This document shows, in pieces, positions 4,406 to 32,859 of a stretch of DNA of 64,000 bases. The notes below the pieces were generated by a model. The model saw only the letters and a list, made by a program, of their open reading frames with translations, did not search any database and had not been told where the DNA came from. Source of the stretch: Mytilus trossulus (Eukaryota); the NCBI RefSeq assembly GCF_036588685.1, contig NC_086381.1, positions 60,636,001 to 60,700,000 on the forward strand, given 5' to 3'. Every line of letters starts with the position of its first letter. The first letter of the stretch is position 1. Both the position numbers and the translations under genes were made by a program.

Positions 4406-4607
4406 AGGCACGGACCATTTAATTTTTGAAGGGTTACCGAACAAAGATACGCCTGTTGTTTATAGATTTAATGTTAATTAATTATATGGCAAGATATCGT
4501 TTTTACTCCATGTCCATATTTTTTTAATGCAGAAATAAGTGTCGACACATCGTAACTCTGACCTATCTCAGATCCCCGACCCCGCGAAAATCAAATGGTC
4601 TGCACCT
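4406..4607. mobile_element. MITE, PIF/Harbinger-like (related one-ended copy at about 52225-52412)
   Basis: Imperfect TIRs aggcacggaccatttaatttt / aaaatcaaatggtctgcacct, flanked by tta/tac. Confidence 0.55.
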
Positions 4608-5939
4608 TACACTTTAAATATATATACAGATAACCGAATAAGGGTCATTATTCAAAATTATTTATTACTGGGCTTGGGCAAGTGGGTTTAACATGTTTTC
4701 GTAGGAAAAAATAAAGATGTTGATCTTTTTGAATCACGTTGTTAGTGTAATAAAGTATTATCTTCTGTTGTGAGGAATAAGAAATAGGAGTGGATCCGTT
4801 CTTGATCCTTTCTTTTTCGCTTTGGCATCCCACGCATTAGCAGTGTGGTACTGTATTTTGATTTTCAAAATAAAACAGTGAAGTTCTTTCAACGTACTGG
4901 TCAACTCCACGATACCGAAGCACGTGACTTTGGCATAATCAATAATACACTTCACGTAAATACGAGTGAATGAAATTTTAGTAAGTAAGGAAACTTAAAA
5001 ATTAGATATATGGGAATCTGCAAATTAAACAGAATTAAGTCTCATTAATCATTTATGTCTTCATTTGTCCTCTACGCCCCCTTTATAATCCACCACTGAT
5101 ATACAGGAAAGAATCATGACGTTGTTGGAACTATGTGAGCTTATCTACCGTCATCTATCTATTAGTTGACCGTTTAATCATGTATATATTTTTTTACTCG
5201 TAATTCTTTCTTATTTGCTGTTAAGTTCATGATACGAATTTATTTACAAATCGTTCTGATTTAAATTTCATATGACATTGCGTATCATTTAATTATAATG
5301 TATACTAGTTTGGCTAGTTTTCAAGGATCCTTTTTAAAAAGTTCAAATTGAACAGCATAAACGTATTATCTTTTAATTCAAAATAGAACATATACAATAG
5401 AATAAAACCTTGATCGATGCAAAGCGGAAATGACTAAAGGCTAAAAATTAATATTGATAATCTTTGAAACATTTGGAAGAGTTTCAACATTTTTAACATA
5501 ATTAAGATATTAAATCCAAATACTCAACATATACATGATGTACACCAAAAATAGATTACAGTTCAATTGACCTTATAAAAGGTGTATATTAACATAGCTG
5601 TTCTTTCAAGGATATTAAGGTGTAACAAGCCAAAAAGGGTGAGTATTTGATTTGCTGGTTGATATTTTAGTCTGAGAAACATGTTTCATGAGTTGTTATT
5701 AACTTCAAGTTTTTGGTAACAGTCAAGTACGTTCAAATATGTGCATTGTGTCTTTTATGGTTTTTGTTAGTTTTGGGTTTTTTTGCTGATCTATGAAGGG
5801 ATTTGCGGCTAACACTTAAACCAGCTTATCACTTTAAAGTATTTTTCAGTTTACAGATTGCCTTTATTTTCAATCGAAATTTGCAATATAATTTGTATAA
5901 ATTATTGTGTTTTCTTTGATTAACTATTCAAAGCAGGTA

Positions 5940-7810: not shown

Positions 7811-9397
7811 TATAAAAAACGAAGATGTGGTATGATTGCCAATGAGACTACCATCCACAAAAGACAAAAATGACACAGACATTGACAACAATAGGTCACC
7901 GTACGACCTTTAACAATGAACAAACCCTAACCGCATAGCAAGGTATAAAAGGCCCCAATAAGACAATGTAAAACAATTCAAACTAGAAAACAAACTGCCT
8001 TATTTGTGTAATAAAAATAACCAAAAACACATATTTTTTTATGTAACACATAAACAAGCGAAAACCACTGAATTACAGGGTCCTGACTAAGGACAGGCAC
8101 ATACATAAATAATGTAGCGGAGATAAACATGTAAGGCGGAATCCCAACCCCCCTCACATGGGACAGTGGTATAATAGTACAACAACTATAAAAAATTGTT
8201 AAAAAAGGCTTAACTCATCAGATGGACAAAAATACAAGTGGACGTAGCCGGGTTCTCATACATTCCGACACAAAAAGACACAACGAACAGATCTGAGAGT
8301 ACTTGCAGTTATCACAGATAGTTTAAAGCTACTAACAACTAATAAAAAATCATGCCTCTAAGACTTAACACTCAATCCGTACACATCTAACATACAATGG
8401 ATTTAGTGTAAAGACGTCACAAACAGCCAGAGAAACACATGACCTTGTGCAATGCCAAGTTTCAGGTATCAACAGATTGTAGAAAATACTAGAACATATT
8501 AGACAAAGAAACACATGATTAATAGATAACAAAAGGCATCAGGTTTTTTAACCTTTTAGAATAAGATTATTTAAAGGAGCGACAAATTTACATGGATCAT
8601 TTCTAAATTTCCAGGCACGGTTAACAACATTTCCGTAAAAATGAGAATGTGCTATCCCGTTTGAAATAAGTTTACTACAAATACAACTTCAAAACAAAAT
8701 CTTTGTGGTTATGGACAAATTTAGTAAGGTTTTAAGTAATTTATGGTAAAGATATCACTGGTTTAATAGTTTACCAGTAATACATAGGTTGCGTTTGTAA
8801 AAATCAAAAACGTTACAACAGACCCGGCCATAGCGAACAAGTTGTGAAATATAAACACCGTAAGATGGTGCCAAAGGAATATCACCATCAAAAAATGGAA
8901 ATTAACAACAAGGAACTGAAAATCGTCTCTTTTCTCGCAAATCTTAGTTTGGAGTTTCCCGCTAAAAACTGAAATATATAAATCCAGGAAAGGACAGTTA
9001 TTACCGAATTAATTTGTTTTATTTAAAGTAAGTTCAATGGGATAAATTTCAGCAGTATAGTGAACTAGTTAAGAGCACTGACAGATTAGTTGTAGAACAC
9101 TTACTAGAGGCCGAGATGAAACGATATTTAAATGGTTTTTGTGTAGTCTAGGTAGCCAATACATAATTGGGACCTTCAAATGTTCAGAAGAAGCCGTGAG
9201 CTATGATGTGGTTGTGATATGCTTGTTTACTATATGATTTCTGTGGAGCTGATGGACTTGAATGTAGATAAATTTAAAAAAGAACTTCTGTGTAGTATTT
9301 ACGACATACCACCACCACATTGTTGGCTTCTTTGTCGGCCGGTACAAACACAAACCGCTTTGAAAGTATTTGAAGTTTATTTCTTATTCTGGAAATA
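7811..9397 (-). mobile_element. Second family-A Penelope-like copy with internal deletions
   Basis: Colinear with 962-2280; 9060-9397 encodes upstream RT motifs VPADKEANNVVVVCRKYY and MYWLPRLHK. Confidence 0.85.
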
Positions 9398-9510
9398 GGT
9401 AAAATTGAGAAAGGAAAAGAGGACTGTTTCAAAGAGACAACAGCCCGACCAAAGAAAAAACAACAGCAGAAGGTCGTCAACAGGTCTTCAATGTAACGAG
9501 AAAATTCCGC
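9398..9510. repeat. Solo 3'-terminal fragment of family B (also 41100-41293 and 51255-51584, both inverted)
   Basis: gtaaaattgagaa.ggaaa...tcaaagagacaaca.cccgacc...aacaggtcttcaatgta.cgaga matches 28687-28800. Confidence 0.8.
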
Positions 9511-10261: not shown

Positions 10262-10460
10262 ATGGCGACAATAAGCAAGAAGGAAGATAAATGTATACGT
10301 CTTCAAAAGCTGATTGATCTAGGTACCAAAGCTCTTCGTCATAAATTCGATATACTGCTTCCACCATATAAATTACAAAAAATACTGGAGACATTCAAGC
10401 CTAACCTTACCCATAGAATAAGTCGTCAGGAGTACGACAGATTATTCCCACAAGGAGGAG
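10262..10460 (+). CDS. HEPN-TM gene coding exon 1 (MATISKK...LFPQGG)
   Basis: Acceptor tattacag ends at 10222; ATG at 10262 in context gtcATGg; donor gtaata at 10461. Confidence 0.85.
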
Positions 10461-13093
10461 GTAATAATGTATAGCTCTTCTGTTTCATCATTATGTTTTT
10501 CAAAAATGACAATGCTTTAAAAAAAAATGTATTACTGTCCGATCAGGAAATTATTAGTCTTAATTACTTGCTTCCCTAGGTTCACTTTACTACAACGTAA
10601 TCAGGATAGTAAATAAGTTTTCAACATAATATATGTTTATTTCTATATAAAACATTTGCATTTTAGACTCATTTCTATTTTGATTGAAAACCTGAGCATT
10701 ACTAGGTGTCACAAATGTTCATAGTCTTAAAAACAAGATATATAAGTTAATCAAGAATTCAACACGTGTAAAGCCGAGATTGACTATGTGTAAAACAATT
10801 TACTACATGATAACATATTCAGTGTTTTTATCAATATATGCATACCAATGTTATACATAATGCGTTTTTGTAACAGAATATTCACAATCATAGTTGCATT
10901 CTCATTATGCAATTTAATTATTCAAACAACAGACATTCGATTTAATTATGCATTATTATGTTTTTCTTTATCGTCGACAAATCTTTTTCGTATAAATACA
11001 GATTTGGTTCTAAGAATATATATTTTTTTTTATATGAGCACATTGTTTATGTTTGAGAAAATATATATAATATAAAAAATAGTTGAACGTTTGAAATGCC
11101 ATATGTGAGCAACAAGTCATTACATTTATTTCATCACAATTGGTTTATATTTGTAAAGCCCCAGTAACGTCAGACGATATGGACTTGACGACATTAGTTC
11201 GTGTATTACGTAATACTGTGTTAGATGAACCATTGACTGGCTTTGTTTGCCTTCCACAAGACAGTGACACTAGTTTCGCAGCTGATGTAGTTCGAATAAT
11301 CTTTACTAGGAACAAATTATGTCACACAGATTTCGGTTCATTAAAAGATCATGAGTGTCAAAACATGTCAAGTACATTGATAGAGGTAGATCTTTTTCAA
11401 GCAAGCCAGGGTTTATAACATTTCAAAATATAAAATTATAAAGCAAATTGAAAACACCACTCTGAAACACAAAATTTAAATATGTATTCAATAACCTTCA
11501 ACCTGGGTTTTTTCGTCGTCTTTCGTGTCAAAGTCTTATAAACGTCTATGACTTATACGTTTTGTATGTCTAGGTATCGATCGTTTCTTTTTTTTATAAA
11601 CAACGACAGTAAACAATTTAGATTAACGTATTGTTCATAAAACATTTACACACACATTTTCGTCCGAAGTAATTCATTTATAAAGAACCGCAAAAGAAAT
11701 TTCGCAGTAATGTGATGCAAGATTTGATACAAGAATTAAACAAAAGAATAACACTAGATTAAACATAAAATAAATTATCTCTACTTCATTCTAAAAGTTT
11801 ATGATTGAAATATCGCATGCAATTGTGTCTGCTGTTATGACAATTTAGTAATATCAGGGAACGTTTGTCTACCTTTAGTATGTAGAATATTGTGATTTGT
11901 ACTAAATATTTCTCTTCAAGGTTATCCAACGTTTCAGCGATTCGCGGTTTGATAACGATATAACACGAATAATGACGAGCAGTTTAGATTACCGTGCAGG
12001 AAGTCTTATTTGGCATTCAAAGATGGTGATAGCTTTGGTACCAAATGCATTTAATGAGTTTGTGCTTCAACCTGCAAAGGCGTCAGTCATTCGACTAAAT
12101 GAACAGCAGCCACTTACCTATTCAATTGTTGGAGGTACCGTCATATCCGGCATCATGCAGGATATATCTGAAATTCAATCATGTGAGGAACTTTGTTACT
12201 ACCTATTTCGTGTCCGGAACCTTACTATAAGACAATTTTTTTTAATTCTTTACGAATGTTCCTTTCTGAAACAAAAACTTGCAGAACTCAACTTTTGTCA
12301 GAGAAAACAAGATGATTCACTAAATGATACAACACCTGTTGATTTAAGGACAGAAGTAAACGTTACCATTCCTGGATCAAATTCAGATTTACCACTACTT
12401 CTTTCACAAAGCGGACATGTTAAAAATACATTTATGCTTTTGCCGCGGTCATGTGCTATAGGTCAAACATACACAAATGATAAGCTTTTTGATGAACAGT
12501 ACTTCAGCCAGCTCCCTTGCCTGGAAATGGTATATAATAAACTGTTTGAGCAGAAGAGCAGCACGAGCTACTCACGCTTACTAAAAGGTTCTGAATCTGC
12601 AGACAGCACAACTGAAATTAAGCGTTCATTCGAAGAAAACGTTGAAAAAAACTTAGACGCTACATGCTGGATTGTACAATCATTTAAGTTTCCTGCATCA
12701 AGTCAATCATCAACTAACTATCCAGGTTCAAATTGGTTACCACCACATGGTTGTGTATCTATGAAGCATGCAGAGATGGGACGCGTACCTTCAGATAACA
12801 GTGTCACTAATCTAAGTGAATCATATTTAAAGGAGAGGCTCGGTAGCTTCATATGGGAAAAGGATTATGAACTTTTTAACAAGAAAGCACGTGATGAACC
12901 AAATTTATTTTGTGGCTTAAGGTGGTACTTTATGTTGACGATTTTTCTTTTCGTTTTCTACATCATCGTAAGAGAAGTATACCCTTACTCTTATGCCATC
13001 TTTAAGTCTAGGATACAAGCTGCAAGTTTAACAGCCCTTGTTGTTCTTTTCTATTTGATGTTTATTCTCCAAATTTATATATACTACATGTAA
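10262..13093 (+). CDS. DZIP3-like HEPN domain protein with two C-terminal hydrophobic (TM) helices, 532 aa, 3 coding exons: 10262-10460, 11159-11385, 11921-13093
   Basis: Exons join in frame: ggag|gtaata (phase 1), ttgtaaag|cc, gag|gtagat (phase 0), ttcaag|gtt; total 1599 nt. The N-terminus ...ALRHKFD...EYDRLFP...SDDMDLTTLVRVLRN...P..GF..LP..SD.S.AADVVRIIFTRNKLCH... matches the invertebrate DZIP3/hRUL138-like HEPN pattern. The C-terminus has the hydrophobic stretches WYFMLTIFLFVFYIIV and AASLTALVVLFYLMFILQIYIYYM. Confidence 0.85.
11159..11385 (+). CDS. HEPN-TM gene coding exon 2 (contains the RNKLCH HEPN motif)
   Basis: AG at 11157-58 with phase matching exon 1; GT at 11386; R..H codons at 11308-11325. 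Confidence 0.88.
11921..13093 (+). CDS. HEPN-TM gene coding exon 3 (end of HEPN, unknown middle region, 2 TM)
   Basis: Polypyrimidine acceptor tttctcttcaag ends at 11920 and is in frame with the 373-aa ORF; TAA at 13091-93. Confidence 0.85.
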   Translation, partial: VIQRFSDSRFDNDITRIMTSSLDYRAGSLIWHSKMVIALVPNAFNEFVLQPAKASVIRLNEQQPLTYSIVGGTVISGIMQDISEIQSCEELCYYLFRVRNLTIRQFFLILYECSFLKQKLAELNFCQRKQDDSLNDTTPVDLRTEVNVTIPGSNSDLPLLLSQSGHVKNTFMLLPRSCAIGQTYTNDKLFDEQYFSQLPCLEMVYNKLFEQKSSTSYSRLLKGSESADSTTEIKRSFEENVEKNLDATCWIVQSFKFPASSQSSTNYPGSNWLPPHGCVSMKHAEMGRVPSDNSVTNLSESYLKERLGSFIWEKDYELFNKKARDEPNLFCGLRWYFMLTIFLFVFYIIVREVYPYSYAIFKSRIQAASLTALVVLFYLMFILQIYIYYM

Positions 13094-13513
13094 TGTCAAG
13101 TAACCAACGAGTCAAATGTGTCTTTCATATGGAACGCCACAACTGTCTTATGTAGTACTTTTACATAACGTCATGTGGTTTTATTATGACTTGATTAGAT
13201 TTGGTCTTTACACATAAATACGATTTTGACATTACTAAATGATGTTTTGATATGACGCATTAAATCAATATATTATATTCATTACTTAATGACATTTTGA
13301 TATTACATAATTATATGACTTGAAATGGTTTGTCATTATCTTCATATGATATGATTTCAAAAATATATAATGGTGCTGTGTCATAAATCAATGTGGTTTT
13401 GATATTTCTTGTTGTGCGTGTTGTGTGGGTTGTTTTGTTGTTTCGCAATGATTATTTGTCAATTCTTTATACTTTAATATATACATGGCTGTAACATTCT
13501 TTATGAAGTTTCG

Positions 13514-13771
13514 ACATTTGACGATTTTTTACAAAACATTATGTGTTCGTTCCAGTATGTGGTATTATTATGGCTTGATGTTATTAAGTCTTTTCATAAT
13601 ATTGTTTTGACATTACTTGTGGTGTTTGAAATCCGATTAACAATGCTTTTCTTTTCAAAAGGATGTCACGAGGGTTAACATCATCAGGTATTGTGATAAA
13701 ATCACAAAATGACAAAACGACATCAAATACTGGAACGAACACATAATGTTTTGTAAAAAATCGTCAAATGT
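13514..13771. repeat. Perfect 45-bp inverted repeat (13514-13558 / 13727-13771)
   Basis: acatttgacgattttttacaaaacattatgtgttcgttccagtat and its exact reverse complement, with a 168-nt spacer. Confidence 0.95.
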
Positions 13772-16049
13772 TGTAGATAAATAAAAAAAACACACATTTT
13801 ATTGATTGTAGGGTAATTAGATTGATATGTACATGGTTCTGCATTCTATCAGGTTTTCTCATGGTCTTAATAAATATACAGTCCAAAATAAAACTCATGA
13901 ACTCATCTTAGAATAGTTTTTAGATAACCTTACTAACAATATATACATGCTTAATCGTGCAATAGTTTTTTAAGTGTGCTTTTGAACGTTCCATTGTATG
14001 CCACTGTTAATACACAACGTGTGTAGAAAAAAAAAGTACACGCTCATATCATGTCATATGGTAAAGTATCTGTTCTGTTCTGTTCTTTTATTCTTGGGTG
14101 CGGATCTGCTAATGGTTTGTGTACAACTTAATCATATTTATGTACATCGTGATACATTGTTTAAGCATCCTTTTGTATTTGAAGACTGCATTTTTAAATG
14201 TTAATGTCTATTGGTTTTGTCGTTGGATTGTTTCATCGATGTGCATACCGATGCCCGCTTTATAATATATTTCTATTTAAATGTATCGTTTAGTTTCAGT
14301 GAACCATCAACTAGTCATAATAGATCTATTAAAAATGCAAAAGGGAAATGGTCAAATAGTTATATCATATGTTATGATAAATGATACATTTGTATTTGCT
14401 AACTTGAAATGGGTGAAGTGTTAACAATCAATAACAAATACAAAACGAACGGACTCATATGACAAAACATAATTTATTTTGGGGTATATGATAGATTATA
14501 ATACTTACTTGCTTTATGATTTATGAATCCCAAAATTACGTACATTTCAAAACGCATCGCAACTATTTGATAATAAGCTGTGTGCTTCTTAGTTCCGTTT
14601 TCTTAAATTATACCATACATATATATGCATGTTTTGATTGTCACTCCACAAGAACAAAGTTTTTAGATACACATATTGATGAATATTTAAAACATATTTT
14701 TTATATGTCTTTAGTGTTCCTGTATTTATTGATACTAGTGTATTCTTGTCACGTTATGTTGTCATTTAAGCGGAATTGTTTATATTGCCATATAAGCGGG
14801 ATTTGGCAAGTCACACCATTTTGTTCTTTAAAATATACTGTACCGTAGTCAGGAATATGGCAGTTGTTATCACATAGTCCTGTTTTATATGTTAGCGGTT
14901 TTTTTGTTGTTGTTTTTGTTTAGTATTTCTCGTGTTCCGTGGTTTCCCTAGGTTTTAGTTTGTGACGCGGAGTTATTAACTCTTTATCGATTTTTGACTC
15001 TTGAACAGCGGTATACTGCTATTGCCTTTATATATTAGCATAACATTGTAAACTCAATTTGGAACTGAGAAAGACATTTTAAAATATTTTGTAAAGAAAC
15101 TTTCATTTCAAGAGTTGTATAATAAAGAACAGGCAATGTTTATGCTATATCACAAGGAAATAAAGTATGGTCCAACATTAAAAGCCTAAGCCTAGAGGAT
15201 TACTATTTACTGTTATTAAATGAGTGTGTTAACATGTATGTATAACATTATATTGTATACTTATTATGATCTTTGTTACAAACTTATTGTTTTGAGTTTA
15301 TATGAAAAATTGCATCTGAATTTGAAATTGATAAAAATAAATATAATTTAAAAAGGCCCTTTGGTAAAAGTAGCAACAGTAGGAGTTTCAAATGTGTGAT
15401 TGACTTATTTTATTAAAATTTGTCTCGACTCAAGTCTTCGACTACTTTTTGCGCAATGGATTTACTTTTATATCACACTTACATGTTATCTAGAATTCAT
15501 TTGTATGGGTGTTGTGCAAGGTTTTGGTGAATTAATAAGTCTACTCATCTATAAAGCGTTTGTATTAGATGGTTCAATCAATGTATGTGACGCAAATGTG
15601 AAATAATCTGTTTAGCTAAATGAAATCCTGTCTAATAATGGCAGTTTACAATTTAGATAAGTTTTGAATAAGTGTTCAACATGTTCAAAGGGGTCCTCAA
15701 CGGGATGTGGTATGATTGCAACTTAGGACAACCTTCCAACAGTATCCAAATGACGTAGGTGTCAGCTACGTTAGTAAATAGAAACAACAAAATCACCAGC
15801 TTGACAAGATTTACAGATAAGGCAGCCTAATAGAAAAATGTTCTTTGACAAAAGCAATTGAACTGACTAGAAGTTTGTGTGTTGCATTTCCAGCTCAAAT
15901 AATGTTTGCCAATCAAACTACACTGCATAGTCATACATATTGACAACTATTGACAACTAGTATACAGTAATACTTTAAGAAACTTTTGGTTCTGTGGATA
16001 AAATAAACCTGTGGATAAAATAAAAGGTTGTCCTGGTTTCTGATTATAA

Positions 16050-17675: not shown

Positions 17676-18201
17676 TCACGTTAGAACTGTTCCTATGTCA
17701 GAAAAAATGGTATCTGGTACTAGTCCCTTATAGAATTCCTCACATTTCGTTAAAACATCGTACAAAGCCATCAGTTGTGTATTAGCCTTAACTAGTCTTG
17801 TCTCTTTCCATAGATCATATATGTCACCTTGCAAACAAGGATCTTGCCGAACTTTCCCGATCATTCGCAAACACAGGGGGGAACACGATTTATCTTGTCC
17901 ACAGTTTCGGATTACAGTATCTACTAAGGTGCGGTTTGTTGTTGCTAAATTGGAAATAAAACTCCGAAAATGACATCCAAAGACAGGAGCATCGATCATG
18001 ATTTCGCAAAGAGGAACAGACCTATAATTCTGACAATGATGTGAAGGCCAGCTTTGTTTGGGGTAGTACAAAAGTAAACCTTTACACATTTCTCCGCGCC
18101 ATGACACATCCCACTCTACGGTGTCATTTTCGGAGGTAGAATTGTATTCACAGGTCATCTTCAGCATGTCTCCTGGCAATAACTGTATTGGTTGTTTATA
18201 C
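17676..18201 (-). CDS. Monooxygenase exon 8 (YKQPIQLLPGD...GEMC...Cys-rich tail)
   Basis: Acceptor ttttccag|g; CuM Met at 18087-89; TGA at 17676-78. Confidence 0.9.
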
Positions 18202-21200
18202 CTGGAAAAAAGTCAAAGATGAAAATTAGAAATAAAACTTCAAACAGTTTGCGCTTTTCATTTGCTTATCTTCATCAGGACTGCTCAAACACAAACATTT
18301 TAAAAACAAGAAATGTTTCTGTAAGGAGCTATAATAACAAAACGGACTTTAAATGAATAGCCTGATCAATTTTGCGTGTAGGAGCCTAAATTATAGTTTC
18401 TCAGTTATCATTTTTTTCCGTATCAGATTCATCAACTATTGTATTTCATACAAGTATATCATTCTTACAAGGATTATTTAACGAAAATACCATGCCCTTT
18501 TGAGAGGTAATCAAATTTCCTGAGCCGTTAGGCAAGGTAAATTTATTAAGCTAGAAACCGATATTTTCGCAAATACCCCTTGTAAGCATGATGTAATAGT
18601 TTAATTCCGCCGAATGATCCTTGTGTCCATCTAAACGAAAAGTCTAGAAGTCATTAAATTGATTGATTGTTGGTTGATTAACGTCCAGTTGCAAATATTT
18701 CATGCATATTCAGGATGATAAAAGTCATTGGAAGTCGTATAATGTCTAGACATGTTATTTCCTATCTGCCGTGGTATTTATTTTGCTAGCGAACATACCG
18801 TCACATGGAATCCCTAATGACACTTACACAGCGGGAGAGCAATATATAGAAAATTTGTGAAAATACCCTTTCTTTCATAAAAGTACAGCATTATTAAAAA
18901 AATGTACATAATTTGGAATTATTCCGCAAATCAGCGAATCTGTCAAACCCTATATGAATATTTATGAAAATCAAGAGACGACATCTCTATTCTAGAGAGT
19001 CCTATTCTTGATATTTTTAAATGCATCTATTGAAAAACCAAGCATTCAAACCTATCACATGTATACTGTTGAAAATACTCCACTTTTGATTTTCTTATTG
19101 CAAACACCATGGATTAAATATCAATCGTATGGTATATAATTGTCAACAAATATCAAGATATATATATGTAATAAACGGTCGACATAATACAGACACAGTT
19201 GTACAAAAGATATCCAAGAACAAATTGCTTACCAAAAGTAATGTGGATGAACAACTTTATAATTAGTATCATTTGTGACAATTTGTTGCAGTTTACCACC
19301 TCTGTGGATCTCTATTTTTTGTTTTCGACCTTAAAAAAAAAATAAAAGTAATATACGTTAATATTTCATAATCCACGAAAACGTATAACGGAAATATACT
19401 AATATACTATAACAGTAGATATAAACACTTCTTTAAGAAGACAGTCATGCGCAAAGGGTCAGTTTCTTTTGAATGGGCTAGTTAGCAATGTAACAGCCGG
19501 TAAAATGAAACGTCATAGAATCCTGCCATTTGTTTGTTTGTTTATTTGCTTTTCTTTCTTACGGTCACTTAATTGTTAAGTGGAAGAGCAGTAAAGCGAT
19601 GTTTAATCTGGTACTGATTGTTCGGGTGATTTTTTAAATCGTTTACACCTAATATAACTTTAATGCATACATGTAATATCACAAGTGGAAGTTTATACAG
19701 GTTTGCTTAATTCCTTTCCGAAATACAAATTGAAAGGTTTTTTTGTTTGTTTTTTTTTATTCTACTTTTATCGTCTTTTTTTTTATTCGAAAGTATCATT
19801 CCATGCAGACTCCGATTTGTCTTCAAATGTTTTCTTATGTGTGCATCACGACTGATGCCACACGTGAAGGGGATCTTATTACCCTTCTGGAGCACAATTC
19901 TATTTAAAGACTCATAGATTAGACCGTTGGTTTTCCCGTTTGAATGGTTTTACACTAGTAATTTTGGGGCCCTTTATAGCTTGTTGTTCGGTGTGAGCCA
20001 AGGCTCCGTGTTGAAGGCCGTACTTTAACCTATAATGGTTTACTTTTTAAATTGTTACTTGGATGGAGAGTTGTCTCATTGGCACTCACACCACATCTTC
20101 CTATATCTATCATATATAGATAGTCATAATATATAGATAAAGATAAAAAGATGTGGTATCATATGAGTGCCAATGAGAACTCTCCATCCAAGTCACAATA
20201 TATAAAAGTAAACAATTATAAGTCAAGGTACGATGTTCAACACGGAGCCTTAACTCACATCGAACAGCATGCTGTAAATAGCCTCAACAATAACTAGTGG
20301 AAACCAAACGGTCTAACATATATAAACAGATAACAACCACTAAACATCAGATTCCTGACTTAAGACAGGTGCAATCAATTGCAGCGGGATTAAACGTTTT
20401 AATAGTACCCAATCTTCTCCCTTTTCTGAAACAATAGTAAAACATCACAAGATGTATTTGGTTTTCAAACATAACTGCTAAGTCAATTCTTAAGATTTGT
20501 AATACAAACTTACCTAGCCTGTGCATATGATTCATACCAAGTACAATGTAGATTGGAGATGCCACCTGTAATACAGTACAATCTCCTGGACATGCGCTCA
20601 CAACTTCAAAAGATTCTCTTCCGGGTGGCACTGAAAAATGTGTTACTTCCAAAGGTGAAACTCCCGCATCAAACCTCCTGAGTTTTGGTGTGTAATATAA
20701 AGTCATCCCGGAACTGTCGGTGTATCCTTGACGGCGGGTAGGATTATAATACTGAAACTGCAGATATGATAACATGACATGAAAATATCTTTTAAAATTG
20801 AAATTGAGTATATTAAGACTTAAAAGAAGTTATTTTGCAGTTTGATTGATGAAAATAAAATTAATTATACAAAACTGTTCCCTTATATCATGATGAAAAA
20901 AATCACTAGCAAGTGCATTGATTGTTGTGCTATTTTATTTGTCGTCACAGCTGACATGTTCTAATTATCTTTCCCACTTTTGATAGTTCAATTAGGAACC
21001 CTTGTAACAACACTCTTTTAGTGGTCTGTATAGGTAGCCCGTTGCAAGGCTAAATTTCTGACAAGATCCAAAATACCCTCATTTTCCTCAAATTTCCACG
21101 ACCTTCATCCGGATGATCTTTATTACAGGGCATACATATTGTATTTATTATTTTATGGTAATCAAAGGTACCAGGATTATAATTTAGTACACCAGACGCG

Positions 21201-24200
21201 CGTTTCGTCTACATTTAAGACTCATTAGTGATCGACGCTCATATCAAAATATTTATAACGCCAAAAAAGTACAAAGTTGAAGAGCATTGAGGATCCAAAA
21301 TTCCAAAAAGTTGTGCCAAATACATCTAAGGAAAGCTATGCCTGGGATAAACAAAATCTTAGTTTATCGAAAAATTTAAACTTTTATAAACAAGAAATTT
21401 ATAAAAAAAAAAAATGACCACATTATTGATATTCATGTCAACATCGAAGAATCTGTTCTCATTTTGAAAGTATATGAAATGTTTGCCACTGGACATTAAG
21501 CAAATATATTTATAATGTATACATACAGCTACCATAACTTGTCTAAATCCTTTAATACCAATCCTGACTCCAGCTTCAGCAGGCATACACGTCTGGGGAA
21601 CGCCTGCTGTGTATCCTGTAATGATTTCTTGGCATGGAGTTGTGGGTATACCATTGCATAGATATGCTCTGTCTGTTCTATTGAATTGCCTTCTAGGATC
21701 TAAAACAATAAACGAACATTGATTATCATTCTTTTGATTTCGTTATGATGGATTATACCCTGAACATTGTAGGTTTTACTGTGAAGATGAAAGCACATTT
21801 CAGCGGCAAATATCACGCTTTACGGACGCCATTATTATGTGGTTAACCGTAAATGCGACATTATTTGAGGTTTAAAGACACTTACTAGGTTTCTAATGGC
21901 CCCAATCAATCAACAAAAGCTAGCAATATCTTCCAATCAGATAGTAAGAAAGCATTAAGACCGCATACTGTCAATATCTTGTTTATCGGCGATGAGTTCT
22001 TTGTATCTTTATTTCGTTGTGTTGGTTTTTTTCTCGTCTTTTGGTTACCTTTCTTTTGTCATCCAATCATAAACAAAATGCTTACTGCAGTATGAGCTTT
22101 GATTTAAAGGTCCTTGGTTAACAAGAAGTGAAACAATTTAAAAGAAGTGAAACAACTTAAAACGGAACACATTAATGGCATGCTTCTCCTGATTTCAGAC
22201 TTGCACATACAAAATGTGGTTGAATTGAATTGATTACTGTCAATCCACGTCTAAACATCAATTGAATCTATCTATATTCTTATAACAACGATTATAAAAA
22301 AAACTTGTTTTATTTTCAAATGACGCATATGTAATTGGCGATGGTATATTATATAGATTTGATATACGATTTTTTGTTGAGTCAATCAGTATGACCATTA
22401 CTTAATAACATACATTTGTAGTAGCCATTCATTACGAAACGTGCATATCAAACAGTATGAACATTTTACATTAATTATTATTGATTAAAAGAAACCAATA
22501 TGCAAAGGAAATGCCAAACAAGGACAAGATATATATGGTAAATGGTAGATAATCCAAAGTAAATTATTTACGTCCGATACCTAAGTTAAACTTAAGTCTA
22601 ATTTGTCACAAATATGTGTTATGTTGATGGTTGCATCTCACGAAGACGAAAATGTAACTAAACTGAATAGAGAATCTCTACGATCTTTCATCAATACAAA
22701 ATTCCATATTGACAAATACATACATCAGAGGTATACAAAATAAAACAACAACTTACAAGGTTCCTAACTTGTAATGGGCATTGTGTGAAGATTGAGATGG
22801 AATGGCGGACCAGTTTAGATACGCCCGTCGCATTTTCCATGAATACATTCTCTATGTCATACCAGAAATTTGTTGTTTTTTTTAAATCTAAAGGGAGCTG
22901 TTTTTAATAGATGAAATCAACTCATTAAAGTTTCATGAAAATATGTTTAAGTGTGTTTGAGTTATTGTTGACAGTTCGACATGTTGATGACGGACGGACG
23001 AACGGTGGACAAACTACGGTATTCCATGACACACCCCCTAAACGGGCGAATAAAACAACACAACATCATTGAACACTGAATATCAACAGTGTACCACCAT
23101 ACATATGCTCAATTACAGTATTTTGGTATAATTATTCTTACCACAACCGAATACAGTAATTCCATGTAATATCTGAGAGTTGTCTTTAATTGGCAAGGCA
23201 GCAATCACGTGATATTCTGCGTCACTTGGAAGACTGAATAACGAACACACGTAGGATACTCTCCTTGCAGGTACATAAGACAACGGTAGTCGTAGAGTTA
23301 CATTTTTAACATCTATAAAATAAATCATACACATTAGCAAGTATACACTGAAGTAGTTGGCAAGGTCAAAACTGAAAACATTGGCATAGTAATAATAATC
23401 ATCACAAAACAATACTTTATAAAAGAGGGACGAAAGATACCAGAGGGACATTCAAACTCATAATTCGGAAAATAAACTGACAACACCATGGTTAAAATTA
23501 AAAAGACAAACTGATAAACAATAGTACACATGGCACAACATATAAAACTTAAGAATAAGGAACAAGAACCCCACCAAAAACTAGGGGTGATATGTCATGC
23601 GTCTGAAGCGCCCTTTGGATCTGTGCAGAAACGCCAATTTGAAAGCCACGTATGAATAAAAAACGCAACAATGGAAGATATAATTTATGACGAAAAAAAC
23701 AAGAGTCTAAAACTAATAGGCCGACTGAGTTAAAACCTTAGTTACTTTTTGAAATAATTAATAAACTTATAAACTAGAAAAAAAGAAACGTTTGTTAATT
23801 ATATAGATCATTCCAGTAATGAGGTATTGACTACTGAGCTGATGACTGGTAATTCACCAACAGAGAAATCGACCCAGTGTTGTAAAATAGGAAACAACAC
23901 TTTATAAAGTCTATGCTTCCGAAGCGTCTTTCTAGAGATCTACCATCACTATAGGAACGTAGAGACTCAAACATTTAAAAGCCAATGGTGCACACAACAA
24001 CCGAAACAGTCGAAGAGCTTTTATTAATAAAGAACTTCACTAATTATAGCCTTCTAAGTTCAACCATGCCTATTTCATATAAATCATATCAGTGTTGAAC
24101 TATTCACTACTGAGCTGATGATAACATCGGGGACTGATAGTCCACCAGCAGCGTTATCGACCCAGTGCTGTAAAACAAATTGGGAGCATTCCCGTTTCTA

Positions 24201-27200
24201 TTCTTTATTTCGTCGTAGGACTTTTGCACTTTTTATAAACATTTGCGCTTTTATATATAAATATGTATATAAGACAATTGCGATTTTACAATATTTCCTT
24301 CTTCTTTTTTTAGTGTTTTAGGCCGTGTTCCTGTGAACTAAATATTTCATGAAAAATGCAAAAATCCAGTCAATTTGTTATAAGCGTATCAAAAAATTTA
24401 CAGAGCATGTCCACAGCGTTTGAAGCGCAAATGTCCTATCGTGTTACATGAAAAATAAAAAGGCGCAAACGACCTGTGCACCGTTATGCTATCGATATAT
24501 ATTTATATACCTGTTGCATTTATTCCATCGCAAGCTGGCATTTCGTTGTTACACTGCAGTGAACCATTTCTGCTTTGACACGTCTCGCTGTCCCATGGCT
24601 CGCAAATTCCTACAATAACAAGTGGGGGGAAAATTAAGAATTAAGTTTGTATGACCCTGACTTAGTCCGGAGCATGATGTTCGGTGGTTGTCGTTTGTTG
24701 GTGTTATTCCTGTGTCTTTCATTTTTTCCCTATTGATTAGACCGTTAGTTTACATGTTTGAAATGTTTTACGCTAGTCATTTTAGAATCCTTTATAGCTT
24801 GCTGTTCGATATGAGCTAATGCTCAATCATGTTGAAGGGTGTACTCTAACCTGAAATCGTATTTTTTTTTAATACATTGCTATTTCGATTGATAGTTGTC
24901 ATTTACACTCCTACCATTTTAACATCTTTTTATAAAGTTTTTAATGATTCTTTATATAACATCATTAACATGTACCTGGATGAGACAGAGGTGGGTATAG
25001 CGGTTGTTTGCTACCAGGAGTCCATAAACACCATGGGTCACCTAACTCATATCCGTTGTACCGACCATCTTGGTCAGAGTCCTTCCAGCATAAATCGGTT
25101 GTCCATTTCTATAAAATAAAACACTGTTGTAGGATTGTAATTGTATCATTTTTACTTTTTAAGTTTGAAAACGCGATTTTATTGTTTTATTGATGAGAGG
25201 TTGGATAGGGATCCTCCATTTCTACACTGTTAAATTTTGGTCATTTGTCTGTATTCTTTTATTCTTTGGTCCATTTTCTCTATTCTTTATCAAAAAATAA
25301 AAAATTCTGTAAATCCTGGTCTACACCCTTATCAATATAGGGAAATAAGAATCTCGAAATGGCTGGTGTTGACCGTAACATGTGAACCCCTTAAATTGGA
25401 CGATTTTTGTTTTGTACAAAAATATGTACATTGTATAAGTTGGTTGACTTATAAATGGTAAAAACACAGATCAAATACTTTTTATTAGGGATATAAAATC
25501 AATTATTTTATCTGCATACATCAATCATCAATCCGTTTCTCAGTCAACATGTACCGCGAGATATTGTACAATGTGTATTGTTTTGTAATGGGTAGTAATA
25601 TGTCTAATATTGATTCAAGTCGAAAGACCATCATAAAAAGTTGGCTAATTATTCTTAAAAAACGGAAACACAGATTGTATTGTCACCAAGCTTGCATATA
25701 TATAACGTTATAAAGTAACATTATATGATAACTCAAGAACGGTCAAAGTGACGCCATATGCACGTTCAAACTTGATGTGTGTTGTAGTAACAAGGATTGT
25801 GCATTCGCTACATTTCATTTGGCTTGTGCAAACTATTTAAGTTATCGAACGGAAACCAATTTTTGGACCGACGGACAAACGGACAACGGTTACAAACATA
25901 CATGTATGATAATGCTCTGCATAAAAAAACTTTCACGAATAGTCAAAATGCATGGGAAAAAATATTCTGTAATGTATATTTAAAAGGACAATCTTTTTCA
26001 TATGCTTATATTATTTTTTTGGGGGAAACCTCCTGAAACAAATCTCATGGGAACTTTTAAAAAGAAATGACCTAAAATTAGCACAAGATCATCCAAATCA
26101 AACTTGATATGAGCCTACAGGATCATTTTTTGGGGGCGTAAACGAACTATCAATTGATGCTTATGTTTCCATTCCGATGTTGCTGCGTATATATATGAAC
26201 ACGGCTGCTAAACTGGCACCCCTTAGCAAGATCTAGAATTATTTACTACATGTACCTCAAGGGTTATTTGAAACTAGAATATATAGTTCCGTACACAAGG
26301 AGGATATGGACATGATGGATATAGTGAATGTCTTTAGAAGTTCAAAATTAGCATTTTTGTAATTGAATAACATATGAATATTTTATAAATTACTTGTCAC
26401 TTATGTGGTGAAATTTGACATACTATAAATGCGTCCTTATTTGTAGCAGTAAATTTAAAACATCGTATCAGTCACTCCATCTTCGCTAGCCAAGGGTTAC
26501 GATCCACTCCCGGCGTTCGAACGGGAGTGGATCGTAACCCTTGGCTAGCGAAGATGCAGTCACTCCAACAATCGTGTATCGATACATTAAATTAGTAAGG
26601 AATTTAAGCAAAACATTCAAAAAGAAATGTGACTATCGGATTCAAATACTCGACTATGATGTTGTCATCTATAATACTTGACCGAGATACAATGAGTGTA
26701 TGACTACAACAGCTACCTAGCTGTCTTACCATATTTGGCCGAGTTTAAAAAAGAAGTGCAACAATTTGTCAAACCAAGCTGGTGGATTTGTTTTAGAATA
26801 CAAATCTCGGTTAAACCATCAAATAACAAGACTGATCAAATTGTCACAATTCGGCCGCTACCGTACGTCATGCATCTAACGGCGAGTAGCGGAGTCACTA
26901 CTAAAGGTTTCCCAATTGAGGACTGATCAACATGTTACACAATTAAAAAAAACGTAATCTTTTGATTTATTGTTTGTTGGATTGGTGTTTAACGCCACTT
27001 TAGGTTTTACTGAGTCGGTGGTCGGTAGAGAACTAGCATCGGCTCTTGATATAGTAGTACGTTTACTTACACAACTCGACCACCGGGGGCCGCTAACAAA
27101 TCTTTTGATTTGCTTTCATGATCTTTCATGTCATTTCATCAATACGTACTAGTTTAAGTTTAGAATGTCGTATTTTTTTACGTTTGTATTTTTTATATGC

Positions 27201-28514
27201 ATGAAAACTTTATAGATACAAATTATTTCCCATCAAGTATAAGGACATTCATAATTGGTCATTGTACTTTCGCCTGGTCGTTAGTCGACGTAACAGACCA
27301 TTTATATGGCAGTTTTATTTCCTTTATATGTAAATGCTAGTCCTGGGTTCATGACCTTAGAAATATTTGATGATAACGTTGGCCTTAGTGAATACTAGTA
27401 TTTCAATATAAAACCAAACAAACACCTCATTATAAAAGACAGCAACTGTATAATATTAACTTTGAATAAGAGATCTACTAAAACGTCCATAAGCAAATGC
27501 TGCTGAATTACTTATAATAAAGGTAAACTATTGGCTAGAAATACAATAACGTTTTGCAGAAGATAATGTAAGCTCATTATGTTTTATTGGAGTAGGCCAA
27601 ACAACGACTTAATGAGGCAACAGTAGCTAGATGGGGAAGCTATTTTTGGGTAGTTCTATAGACGTTTAGACGAGAAATTTAAATGTGAAGCTTTTCGGGT
27701 TAAAACAACGCTAGCTTATTATGGACAGCAACATAACTGTATTCGAGTAAGCAATACTAGCTCTTGAGATACTATTAAAAAGAAAGCTTAATGAGTAGCT
27801 TTTAAGGAATTTAAAAAGAAGAATATCAAGACCGAAGCGTTTTGCAGAAGGGATTTTTAGTCGAAAGCTAGTATAACTTCCCTAATTAGGTCTTTACGTA
27901 TTTTCCCAAAAAGCTATATCCATTCACAACTATTTTAAAAATTGACTGTTTTTAGAAGACTACTTTTTCTTTAGCCACTAATCTCAGATAGCCAATTTAA
28001 CAATTACTTCAGATTGGAATAAAAGACAATAAAAAGAAAGTTGTCACTTTTCTGTTTTTCCCAGCTTGTACTGGACGACATTTTACAATCTGGTTATCAG
28101 TTCCCTCTTTAACTTCTTGTATGAACTCTATACTATCATGCTTTTTATATATGTTTATTATTTACCAGAAGTTAACAAATAATCTTCTTTGTTTTTCTTT
28201 TTTCCTATTGTTCTTATACATAATTGGCTAATCATCAGGCGTTATCTAAGGACAGATTCAGTTTCCTTAATAACCATGTGGTCATTTATAATAAATATTA
28301 CCATACTTACGAAACCATTTAGTTTGAAGTCTTCACCAAATGGATTTCGAGGCCCAGAGCCCAGTGGTCCCATATGACCAACGCCTTTCCATATCTGAGT
28401 GGCATCGCATGGGTCTTTAACGTTTAGTCCATTTGGAATAAAGGCCTGAAATTGATAATATCCAAAACATTTATAACAAGACGAGAACAACAACACTATA
28501 CTAATAATATGCAT
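17676..28514 (-). CDS. Secreted temptin-domain / copper type II ascorbate-dependent monooxygenase (DBH/MOXD1-like) fusion, 548 aa, 8 exons: 28311-28514, 24976-25108, 24511-24609, 23142-23312, 21527-21699, 20514-20757, 19233-19329, 17676-18201
   Basis: All seven introns are GT-AG with matching phases (0,1,1,1,0,1,2); total 1647 nt. Signal peptide MHIISIVLLFSSCYKCFG; temptin motifs IPNG..V.DPC, GVGH, NPFGEDF, WTTDLC..DSDQDGRYNGYELGDP.C.W, SHPG; monooxygenase motifs SYVC, EAGVRIG, YNP...DSSGMTLYYTPKLRRFDAG, HMHRLG, LLPGD.LKMTCEYNS, EMC..LLYYP. Confidence 0.92.
19233..19329 (-). CDS. Monooxygenase exon 7 (GRKQKIEIHRGGKLQQIVTNDTNYKVVHPHYFW); not in the ORF track
   Basis: Acceptor tttttaag|gt; donor ttg|gtaagc; phase 1-2. 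Confidence 0.88.
19918..20440. repeat. Two family-A-like terminal repeats in inverted, end-to-end arrangement
   Basis: 19918-20110 is the reverse complement of about 20140-20320 (ggatggagagttgtctcattggcactca / tgagtgccaatgagaactctccatcc). Confidence 0.8.
20514..20757 (-). CDS. Monooxygenase exon 6 (FQYYNP...GMNHMHRL)
   Basis: Acceptor ctgcag|ttt; donor ctag|gtaagt; CuM HxH at 20521-20529. Confidence 0.92.
21157..21450 (-). mobile_element. Retrozyme-like / Penelope pLTR-like repeat carrying a minimal type I hammerhead (21188-21240) with a mutated core
   Basis: Minus strand reads ...CA CUAAUGA GUCU-loop-AGAC GAAAC GCGC GUC UGGUG; CUGAUGA is changed to CUAAUGA. Second copy at 50126-50299. Confidence 0.75.
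21527..21699 (-). CDS. Monooxygenase exon 5 (DPRRQFNR...EAGVRIGIKGFRQVMVA)
   Basis: Acceptor gttttag|at; donor gct|gtatgt. Confidence 0.9.
22820..23055. mobile_element. Decayed Helentron-associated (HINE/pearl-like) element; similar relic at about 25665-25928
   Basis: (gacg)n microsatellite; atacgcccgt...acgggcg.ataaaa subterminal inverted motif; one core repeat. Confidence 0.55.
23142..23312 (-). CDS. Monooxygenase exon 4 (DVKNVTLRLP...ILHGITVFGC)
   Basis: Acceptor tttatag|at; donor tgtg|gtaaga. Confidence 0.9.
23595..24175 (-). mobile_element. Tandem, decayed retrozyme-like monomers (about 280-320 nt period) of a second hammerhead family
   Basis: Hammerhead relics at about 23597-23625 and 23913-23950 (related to 16449 and 18245-18290); structured motif repeated at 23832-23878 and 24109-24166. 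Confidence 0.55.
24511..24609 (-). CDS. Monooxygenase exon 3 (GICEPWDSETCQSRNGSLQCNNEMPACDGINAT); not in the ORF track
   Basis: Acceptor ttgtag|ga; donor acag|gtatat; 99 nt, phase 1-1. Confidence 0.88.
24976..25108 (-). CDS. Monooxygenase exon 2 (KWTTDLCWKDSDQDGRYNGYELGDPWCLWTPGSKQPLYPPLSHP); not in the ORF track
   Basis: Acceptor ttttatag|aaa; donor ccag|gtacat; temptin Ca-binding-like motif. Confidence 0.9.
26478..26556. mobile_element. 79-bp palindromic MITE with 9-bp TSD
   Basis: Perfect 35-bp arms catcttcgctagccaagggttacgatccactcccg, 9-nt loop, TSD cagtcactc on both sides. Confidence 0.92.
28311..28514 (-). CDS. Monooxygenase exon 1 (signal peptide and first half of temptin domain)
   Basis: ATG at 28514; donor ttc|gtaagt. 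Confidence 0.9.
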
Positions 28515-28686
28515 AGTACAAATGTAAAAATTTCTGTCGCTACATAAATAAACCTCGTTCCTGACAAGTATGAATATATAAAAAGTGATTCAAGTCATTT
28601 CATTAGGACAGGTAGAACAGGTTAGATCATAATTACTCTGATGAATGTGTATTGTTGTGATACGTTCGGGAGTGTGGTCTTTTATT

Positions 28687-30625
28687 GTAAAATTGAGAAT
28701 GGAAATGGGGAATGTGTCAAAGAGACAACAACCCGACCAAAATAAAAAACAACAGCAGAAGGTCACCAACAGGTCTTCAATGTAGCGAGAAATTCCCGCA
28801 CCCGGAGGCGTCCTTCAGCTGGCCCCTAAACAAATATATACTAGTTCAGTGATAATGAACGCCATACTAATTTCCAAATTGTACACAAGAAACTAATATA
28901 AAAATAATACAAGACTAACAAAGGCCAGAGGCTCCTGACTTGGGACAGGCGCAAAATTGCGGCGGGGTTAAACATGTTTGCGAGATCTCAACCCTCCCCC
29001 TATACCTCTTACCAATGTAGAAAAATAAACGCATAACAATACGCACAATAAAATTCAGTTCAAGAGAAGTCCGAGTCTGATGTCAGAAGATGTAACCAAA
29101 GAAAATAAACAAAATGACAATAATACATAAATAACAACAGACTACTAGCAGTTAACTGACATGCCAGCTCCAGACTTCAATTAAACTGACTGAAAGATTA
29201 TGATTTCATCATATGAACCTCAGGCACAATTCTTCCCGTTAGGGGTTTAGTATCATACCATCATAACATATATGAGAAGAACATAACCCGTGTCATGCCA
29301 ACAACTGTTTTTAGAATAAATGTCTTTAGTTCCGACGCAAAGACCTTATCAGTGACTCAATATTAACGCCAAAATATGCAATCTTTAATGACTTGACAAC
29401 AGTATCGTAATTATATCCCTTCTTAATCAGTCTATTTAAAGGTTTTGTAAGTTTCTGATGTGAATACTGACACCTTTGTGCTTTATAAAGAATATTTCCA
29501 TAAAAAATTGGATGTGAAATACCTGAACGTATAAAAAGTCTGCATGTTGAGCTATATTTACGAAAGATGTCTTTATACCGATTATAAAATTTAGTAAAAG
29601 TTTTGACTAGTTTGTGATATCGAAAACCCTGGTGTAATAATTTTTCAGTAATACATAAATTTCTCTCGTTAAAATCTAAAACATTGTTACAAACACGAGC
29701 GAATCGTACAAGTTGAGATATATAAACACCGTAAGATGGTGACAAGGGAACGTCACCATCTAAAAACGGATAATTAACGATAGGAAATGAAAAATCATCC
29801 CTTTAATCATAAATTTTAGTATTCAGCTTTCCGTTAGTGATATAGATATCAAGATCGAGGAAAGGGCAGTGGTCATTATTAGTATTAGCTTTATTTAAAG
29901 TAAGTTCAGCAGGATATTTCATTAATATACATACTGAAGTCGTCATTATTGAGAGCCAAAATATCATCCAAATATCTAAAAGTACTATTAAATTTGTTTA
30001 TCAAATGTTGTTTTGATGGGTCTTTGCTTATTTTTGTCATAAATTGTAACTCATAACAATACAAAAAGAGGTCCGCAATAAGTGGTGCACAGTTAGTTCC
30101 AATTGGAATTCCGATAATCTGACGATATACGGAATCCCCAGAGCGAACAAAAATGTTATCTAGTAAAATTTCAAGGGCATATATAGTATCAAAGCATGTC
30201 CAATTAACATAGTTTTTTTGTTTATTGCTACTAAAAAATGACCTAAAAGAGTTTGAACATATATATTCACATTCTTATTTTTTGAATGGACATTTAATTA
30301 GGTGTGTGAATTTTTTCTTAATGAGAATGTGAGGCAATGTGGTATACAGGGTAGAAAAATCAAAACTTTGAACAGATTCAAAATCACCAATATGAGCATG
30401 CAATTTATCAAGTACTTCCAACGAGTTCTTGACACTCCAAAAGTAATTTATTCCACTATTTTCGAAGGCCTTATTTGAACAATGTATTATAAGGTTTTTA
30501 ATTGTACCAAGTGTGCTGGTAAGAAGAATAGACAATTTAGTAGTTGAACAATGGCTTGAAGACGAAATAAATCTATATTTGTAAGGGGTTTTGTGTAGCT
30601 TTGGAAGCCAATACATAGTTAGTAC
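28687..30625 (-). mobile_element. 5'-truncated Penelope-like retroelement (family B): RT pseudogene 29326-30620 plus about 640 nt of 3' region
   Basis: MYWLPKLHK, FDFSTLYTTLPH, GIPIGTNCAPLIADLFLY, RYLDDI, CPFLDLDI, PSYGVYISQLVRFAR; premature TAA at 30275 and a frameshift near 29915. Confidence 0.9.
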
Positions 30626-32859
30626 CCATCTCAATGAAATGTTGGATGCTAATACGTTAATTGTCGTTATTTGTGTTTTAAACCACATTTTTGTCAGAAC
30701 AAATGTCGTTGATATACGTGTTTGTAAAATGTGCACTATAAACGTCAAAATATACTGTTTGGAACATATATATATAGAATAATACATGGAAAATTCGTAT
30801 CGCAAGCTATATCACCACGATAAATCAATATCAATCCCTAAAGTTATCAAAGGCCGGGACATTAATACTCAAAAGTCAATATTAAAACTGTCCATGAAAT
30901 ATGAAAAAGACCATCTCATAAACAAAAGTATACAAAACACAACGTAGAAGAGTTAGACTGAGCAACACAAACCCTAACAAAACAGGCGGTAAGCATGGGT
31001 TCTTCGGAAGGGTAAGCAGATACTGCGCCACATGTGGCACTCGTTGGGTTGCGTGTGCTAATACAAACATAGCAATAGTCCAATAACCAAATACATGCCA
31101 TCCCTTGCGGGCGTTCTGATCCAAATAAAGATATTGGATCCGTAGATTTATCTTATTATTCACACATGTACACGCGAAGGCACCTATGTTATAGTATTGC
31201 CAGAATATTTTACTAGTTTGCAGAATGTTGAATATGACATGGTGTATTGATTACTGCAATGACACAAAATGGTTACGTTTCTTTGCAGATCACATGCGCT
31301 TTTATTGTTGTCCTTCATCTCACATTTATAATACGTTTCCACACGGAGGGCTCACATCTTACTGCGAGTTATGGCTTTCTTTTATTCTGCTGGTATTAAG
31401 AGTGACTCACTTTGTGTTCTTATTAAAAAAAAAATTGTTCCGTAGTCATGCATGTCCAGTTTTGATTTTGATTATTTTGATTGTTTTGTTCTGCATGTTC
31501 CCCGTTTGTTTTGGTTTCTGTTGTTTTCTTCATATTACGGTTGTTGCGTTGTCCCATGTAACAAACTCGAAACATAAAACTCGAACAATTCGCGAAATGT
31601 GCACGCAACTCTTCGAAATTTTGCATGAACATTCTATGACGGGATATATTTCAGTATTGGTTGACATTGCTGTCTCCATTTAAAATTTGCATACATATTT
31701 TCAAAAGAATATGATGTACGGAAATGTCCCATCGGAAATTTAATTTGCAGTTCAAAAATAAAATTTTGACAAGATAATTTATTGAATTGTATGCACGATC
31801 GTTTTGTACTAAGTGTTTGCTCCCGAAATTCGAATTGAAAAATAAATTGAGCTACATAATAAATTCAAAACAATAGATTTGCAATGTCTTGCGGAAATGT
31901 CCGAGTTCAACTTTCATGCCTTCACAAAAACTTTTACGGAAAAAAACCGGATATTTGATTTTGTGATGATTATTTTTCGGCCTTGATAACTATACCAATA
32001 AAAAGTACTTTTAAAGTTGAAGTTGTTACACCAAATAACATTAATATTACAGGGTTATCTATAAAAAATACGGATTAATGAAAATGTCTTGCAAGTTTGT
32101 CCGTTATCATAATTTGACGTCGCTACAAGCGTAATATGCTAGGAACGGCATGCACTGCGTGTGCCTTCCTCCACTAAATATAAATGTCCTGCTTTCAACA
32201 AAACGAAATCATGCACACATTACAAAAATACATATCTATAAGACTGTCAAAAAGTAAGAACACTTCAGTATCATAAGTATAAGCTATTGTGTGTCACTGC
32301 TTGTATAAAATCATACTCGGGTTGAATATATAATGCAGCAATATTCCTCTAAAAACACATAATTACTAACAGTAAAAATGAATATCCTATGTTAATTATA
32401 AAATCATTGGATTCTCACGGCATTTATACCTGTGTGTTATAATTTGCATTTACCCAAAAAGGAAAGCAGGAAGAATTAGATAAAGCACGTTTCCAATTTA
32501 ACGTCATTTTTATGTTACACTAAATGGTAGCACTATCTGACGTTGCGTCTGTACATATTTAAAACGTTCCTGAAAGATGAAGATGACTATGATTTCTAAT
32601 GAGGTAACTTTTCAGGAAGCGCAATCCGATTTATTTACTTTTAAATATCCATTCCTTGTAAATTAATATCCATACATTGGGAAAAAAACCTTGAAAGAAT
32701 CTGCCCCGTTTTTTTTGTTTTGTTTTTTTTAATTTTCAGTCATTTTATTTCAATTTTGATTGATTGGTTGATTGCTTGCAGTGGTAAACATTTCATGATA
32801 ATTTTTCAATTCATATCAAACACTTTGAAAAATGACGAATTCAGTTTAATTTTACCGTA

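Follow-up and report, generated by a model that had tools for sequence, protein, structure and literature searches.

DZIP3/hRUL138-like HEPN proteins (PF18738) are expanded in bivalves and cnidarians, as described in the relevant sections of PMC3710099, PMC9646362 and PMC8260672, the last of which covers HEPN-NACHT expansions. Invertebrates carry hundreds of such genes, for which degradation of viral or transposon RNA was proposed in passages of PMC9646362; the same text regards the expanded bivalve family as immune. The table row of PMC3710099 on fusions of the DZIP3 family contains no transmembrane (TM) segment. HEPNs of other families held at membranes are treated in parts of that paper: Ire1 and C6orf70 from eukaryotes, where HEPNs with a TM anchor have a known or predicted function at the ER, and three groups of bacterial HEPN-TM proteins, in one of which the N-terminal HEPN is followed by two TM helices. 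For Crassostrea, sections of PMC8195603 describe receptor-like proteins with a Cys-rich ectodomain, a TM segment, DED, TRADD-N and variable C-terminal effectors including HEPN. Our literature search returned no description of a HEPN-hairpin family from Mytilus, although the tables of domain architectures in PMC3710099, PMC9646362 and PMC8195603 may include HEPN-TM forms; PMC7773633 names HEPN in its reference list only.

The window, i.e., the whole 64,000-nt stretch of AT-rich animal DNA analysed here, located at 60636001-60700000 of its contig, carries a HEPN gene on the plus strand at 10262-13093. Rather than forming a single ORF, the gene consists of three coding exons: exon 1 (10262-10460, residues 1-66) provides the start codon and the N-terminal helices of the HEPN domain, exon 2 (11159-11385, residues 67-142) its DZIP3-like core, and exon 3 (11921-13093) the remainder of the protein. 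GT-AG splice sites at 10461, 11158, 11386 and 11920 result in 1599 nt of coding sequence and 532 amino acids. We infer the splicing of the window copy from homology. Homologous junctions are used by the RefSeq paralogues P0004 and P0007, which are NCBI-named Mytilus trossulus proteins matching two paralogues in this genome, and the related protein P0002 reads GGAPVT across the first junction. Within the coding region, contigs from five data sets taken, by guess, to be RNA cover parts of exon 3 only (11935-13084), with exons 1 and 2 uncovered and no joint spanned, a pattern that is neutral as to whether this copy is transcribed and spliced. A further in-frame coding exon may be located upstream, as an acceptor-like site is present at about 10222 and no stop interrupts the frame from there on; P0002 and another relative, P0027, start at the same Met as our gene model. 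No meaningful repeats were found within the gene.

A sequence-only reading of this locus had proposed an N-terminal DZIP3-like HEPN domain with an intact RNase motif. The domain was confirmed by a Pfam search, in which exon 2 alone matches PF18738 (HEPN_DZIP3) with an E-value of 4.8e-13 and 49.6 bits (cut-off 27), and full-length relatives reach 65.7-81.1 bits. The Rx4H motif R117-N-K-L-C-H122 (11308-11325), read from the sequence, is present as well; R117, N118 and H122 are invariant in 13/13 aligned HEPN-bearing relatives (including two near-duplicate pairs) and are among just 10 invariant columns of this alignment. However, an intact motif is not exceptional but the family norm, since 194 of 202 family members in the pearl oyster keep Rx4-6H according to a section of PMC9646362, and its conservation here is therefore expected rather than surprising. 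The residues before the motif have diverged (RIIFTRN here vs. RIKxYRN in most sampled HEPN loci in which the motif was read), and the HEPNs of the window subfamily score below those of the sampled loci on PF18738. For structure prediction, P0002 was used as a folding proxy (identity to the window gene 83% in exon 1, 93% in exon 2 and 48% in exon 3). Its AlphaFold (AF2) model has a confident helical HEPN at residues 8-164 (pLDDT 70-90 over the exon-1 part) and a helical hairpin at about 503-560; between them, the middle is poorly modelled and the linker disordered. In a structural comparison with 48,161 chains, AbiF ranked first (Z 7.3, rmsd 5.0, 140 residues aligned), a weak match in the common range of the tool; AbiF is a HEPN toxin according to part of PMC13064643. 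The last HEPN helices are encoded by the start of exon 3 (11921-11989, residues ~143-165), and the Pfam match of P0002 reaches residue 166. Pfam scans of the gene and of full-length relatives gave no kinase or KEN match, and in exon 3 and full-length relatives no STAND NTPase or repeat domain reached the cut-off, HEPN being the only domain found.

Behind the HEPN domain, exon 3 encodes a middle domain of ~105 aa (11990-12304, residues ~166-270), which is as conserved as the HEPN core (mean column majority 0.70 vs. 0.64 for exon 2). It belongs to no family in Pfam, has no PDB sequence match and no usable Atlas match, and does not match any of 20 sampled HEPN loci (best E-value 0.3). P0024, with an E-value of 1e-5, is a doubtful outlier. 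A helical region of ~110 aa had been claimed at this place; the domain exists, but its mostly helical nature is predicted at low confidence only, as the structure model is poor (pLDDT 57, pTM 0.29). The domain is a candidate regulatory or dimerisation module, but as it could not be modelled, regulation by it is no more than a guess. For a CARD/death fold or a DBB domain, either of which is conceivable here, no support was obtained (no Pfam match; model with pTM 0.29, too poor for judging a fold). The following linker of ~200 aa (12305-12910) is variable, with relatives differing by many indels, and predicted to be disordered (pLDDT ~20 on the proxy P0002). Its description as Ser-rich applies only modestly, with 13% Ser overall and 18% in the core vs. 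10% in the N-terminal part of exon 3. Prion-protein matches from the PDB sequence search (E-value 0.004 or above) are located in the linker, and we attribute them to its composition.

The two hydrophobic helices expected at the C-terminus were recovered by hydropathy as 19-residue windows with Kyte-Doolittle values of 1.96 and 2.26. Predicted TM helix 1 (12914-12970, residues ~474-492) is also a helix in the AF2 model of P0002; predicted TM helix 2 (residues ~507-525) occupies, with a short tail and the stop codon, 13013-13093. The loop between both is only ~15 aa long. The N-terminus is without a hydrophobic stretch (best 11-residue mean 0.65), in agreement with the claimed absence of a signal peptide. 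Together with the position of the helices at the extreme C-terminus, this hydropathy profile fits tail-anchored or hairpin membrane proteins. The charge bias around the helices is mixed and does not fix the topology; a HEPN facing the cytosol, as had been suggested, is supported as the likely arrangement.

Two C-terminal hydrophobic peaks occur in 17 of the 29 retrieved relatives, many of which are fragments. Among the 13 HEPN-bearing relatives, six combine HEPN with both helices, and the seven lacking the helices are truncated, partial or mis-modelled. In three of these six (P0002, P0013 and P0027), HEPN and both helices share one uninterrupted ORF on contigs of 3766, 1686 and 2379 nt, respectively, best read as spliced transcripts, and the RefSeq models P0004 and P0007 from this genome also join them. 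Because HEPN and helices share single ORFs on such short contigs, splicing out of transcripts before the TM segment, the outcome named earlier as speaking against a membrane-anchored HEPN, does not apply to the family.

The exon-3 module is present in three copies in the genome (8 candidates scored per search), all on one contig: the window copy, a second 17 kb upstream of it and a third at a distance of 15 Mb. When 1.84 billion representatives were searched with an exon-3 profile, 18 proteins were returned, and names were looked up for 10 of the 16 new matches. The named relatives all belong to M. trossulus, M. coruscus, M. edulis or M. galloprovincialis, and no bacterial protein is among the named matches. 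Thus, judged by its named relatives, the family appears to be found only in Mytilus. The tandem paralogue P0007 (L005:8999-9211; L004:1698-1927 and 4497-5804) ends ~4 kb before the window start, and its linker contains a near-exact internal duplication of ~85 aa.

HEPN exons as such are frequent in this genome, with at least 150 PF18738 matches among 582 candidates, some of which carry stops. Partner domains were surveyed in 10 kb from each of 20 plus-strand, higher-scoring PF18738 matches, in which 27 of 30 long ORFs were scanned. An nSTAND3 NTPase with ankyrin repeats is located downstream of HEPN in 9/20 of these loci (L016-L035), so that HEPN followed by nSTAND3 (not NACHT) and ankyrin is probably the commonest layout of DZIP3-like HEPNs here. 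Of the partners named as usual, NTPase and ankyrin were thus found, but B-box was unseen in the 20 sampled loci. Several hydrophobic helices are also present in three of the nine nSTAND3-ankyrin loci (i.e., 3/20 sampled). The respective nSTAND3-ankyrin ORFs, in L024 (2665-6093), L029 (3958-7500) and L034 (3701-7192), have 6, 7 and 4 hydrophobic peaks; in L024, one stop divides the helical part from the ankyrin part. A HEPN-STAND-ankyrin-multipass membrane architecture is possible for these three, although their proximity to the HEPN exon is no proof that they are spliced to it. Membrane tethering can accordingly not be upheld as a special feature of the window gene: three of 20 sampled HEPN loci precede multi-helix modules, and precedents are described in sections of PMC3710099 and PMC8195603. 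DZIP3-like HEPNs bound to membranes probably occur outside the family of the window gene, too.

Compared with the described systems, the window protein shares with DZIP3/hRUL138-like HEPNs the HEPN family, Rx4H with Asn after Arg, the N-terminal position and lineage-specific expansion. In contrast to the usual members, it is without NTPase and repeats and has an unassigned middle domain, a long linker and a C-terminal helix pair. Common to the Crassostrea receptors are a bivalve lineage-specific expansion, a possible location of HEPN on the cytosolic side of a membrane and variable domain combinations. However, those receptors are single-pass proteins with an outer domain and a C-terminal HEPN, whereas the window protein has an N-terminal HEPN and no outer domain; no DED or TRADD-N was detected in it, and its hydrophobic helices are only C-terminal. 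Ire1 (KEN) and C6orf70 are likewise eukaryotic HEPNs held at a membrane (part of PMC3710099), but they belong to different HEPN families, have a single TM and are ancient, and the lumenal sensor and kinase of Ire1 are absent here. The bacterial HEPN-2TM-Zn-ribbon proteins (third group, section 15 of PMC3710099) share an N-terminal HEPN followed by a TM helix pair. Since the window protein lacks the C-terminal Zn ribbon, has a 300-aa spacer and carries a HEPN of a eukaryotic family, this likeness is one of layout only. Hence, the gene is a PF18738 member whose architecture is new within an expanded family already known and of immune type; it is distinct from NLR-like HEPN-STAND proteins, Ire1, RNase L and the oyster TM-DED-TRADD-N-HEPN types.

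The exons of this gene family have discordant histories. Exons 1 and 2 result in the same tree, in which the window copy groups with P0002, the upstream copy with P0005, and P0003 with P0004. In the exon-3 tree, the upstream copy groups with P0004 (bootstrap 100). Data of exon 2 and exon 3 each reject the tree of the other (AU p at most 1.2e-5 in the 6-sequence and 8-sequence sets). For the three copies in this genome, dS of exon 2 is lowest between window and upstream copy (0.61 vs. 1.06 and 1.20), but dS of the linker is lowest between the upstream and the far copy (0.35 vs. 1.66 and 1.93). Due to these incompatible trees on either side of the phase 0 intron 2 (11386-11920), HEPN heads and exon-3 tails were most likely exchanged by recombination at this intron, although the discordance comes from few sequences and short exons and in part from model predictions and contig ORFs, among which chimeras may occur. 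Three other HEPN loci have a similar start of the next exon.

Taking these features together, we consider the gene product a candidate ribonuclease, tethered to an internal membrane on its cytosolic side and serving as an effector in defence or stress; for us the chances of this are about even. As there is no signal peptide and the first helix begins ~60 residues before the C-terminal end, insertion into the membrane would take place late, as for a tail-anchored hairpin, and the HEPN would remain cytosolic on a long tether. HEPNs depend critically on dimerisation for their activity, with active sites forming between two protomers (section of PMC10942766); cutting of RNA would therefore require that two HEPN heads are brought together as a dimer. 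Since the nSTAND3-ankyrin switch of many paralogues is absent, activation might result from crowding of the protein within its membrane or from a partner that binds to the conserved middle domain, so that anchor and middle domain would replace the NTPase switch in joining two heads. Recombination at intron 2 would combine HEPN heads with varying tails of middle domain, linker and anchor, as in an immune family of rapid turnover. From rapid turnover and head-tail exchange we infer a putative role in conflict or immunity, as proposed for the family in part of PMC9646362, too. A more far-reaching version is tentative and, in our opinion, rather unlikely: a family of Mytilus' own, consisting of organelle-tethered, NTPase-free HEPN RNases activated by clustering via a new sensor domain, with heads swapped at one intron, forming a kinase-free counterpart of RNase L and Ire1 in immunity.

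The substitution pattern allows a different view, in which the architecture is real but the window copy does little, being a redundant paralogue under relaxed selection and a by-product of birth and death. Contigs from four runs (RNA by guess) are 95-99% identical to exon 3, and the comparison with related-run contigs yielded 32 differences, 24 non-synonymous and 8 synonymous; the resulting pN/pS of 0.82 is not different from neutral (p 0.67). The lack of stops among these 32 changes is not significant either (chance 0.15), and some changes, on each side, hit columns conserved in the family. Further points in favour of redundancy are the large number of HEPN exons, some with stops, and the fact that a protein equal to the window gene's own product was not returned by searches that returned both paralogues. 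Nevertheless, the 532-aa frame is open with canonical splice sites, the contigs contain no indels, and exons 1 and 2 are 83% and 93% identical to P0002. Near-neutral ratios also result from mixed positive and purifying selection, and the exon-3 pattern fits either regime. Between paralogues, dN/dS is 0.39-0.51 for exon 2 and 0.47-0.84 for exon 1, both from only 65-75 codons. On balance, we regard a redundant copy as unlikely. The prevalence of nSTAND3-ankyrin ORFs behind HEPN (nine of 20 sampled loci) opens another view, namely that the protein is a membrane dock or damper for HEPN-nSTAND3-ankyrin receptors, their HEPNs pairing with it to complete or poison a shared active site. Sites built from two protomers (see PMC10942766, in part) and the divergence before the motif would agree with this, but the interaction is conjectural, and the HEPN interfaces may not match those of the receptors, as the subfamily scores lower on PF18738. 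We regard such a function as distinctly improbable.

With TM-anchored eukaryotic HEPNs known or predicted at the ER (parts of PMC3710099), a housekeeping or stress RNase similar to Ire1 or C6orf70, acting on membrane-bound mRNA without any immune role, would also be conceivable. However, Ire1 and C6orf70 represent ancient and conserved families, whereas the window family is Mytilus-only, variable and mosaic; an inter-helix loop of ~15 aa leaves no space for a lumenal sensor, and there is no kinase, so that we judge this reading very doubtful. Finally, HEPN could be a non-catalytic dimerisation or RNA-binding module, with the hairpin or the middle domain doing the work. Inactive dimerisation HEPNs exist, e.g., AbiA (part of PMC13064643), and the conservation of the middle domain equals that of the HEPN core. 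Yet R, N and H being among only 10 invariant columns of 13 sequences argues for catalysis, and a non-catalytic HEPN appears highly improbable. This small family without a large NTPase module offers a simple member for testing RNA cutting by such domains and its control by dimerisation. The exchange at intron 2, if true, would clearly exemplify how domain swapping diversifies effectors in an animal that lacks adaptive immunity; the wider relevance of the family is limited by its occurrence in one genus only.

Several minor features surround the gene. On the minus strand, exons of a Temptin_C and copper type II monooxygenase gene (17676-28589, Pfam) point toward the 3′ end of the HEPN gene. Broken frames on the minus strand at 1679-2331 and 29326-30811, without a reverse-transcriptase match in Pfam, resemble by motif remnants of reverse-transcriptase retroelements, and related copies are located at ~8000-9100. 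A short high-copy repeat at 9399-9510, which occurs several times in the window, is covered very deeply by contigs of all four runs. An inverted repeat of 89 nt (13497-13788; 80% complementary, 114 nt between the arms) lies 400 nt past the stop codon and may be what is left of a small transposon in the 3′ region. In the adjacent non-coding segment 13818-14500, contig differences are fewer than in coding exon 3 (0-2 per 170-230 nt in several pieces), and this segment is possibly the 3′ UTR of either neighbouring gene.
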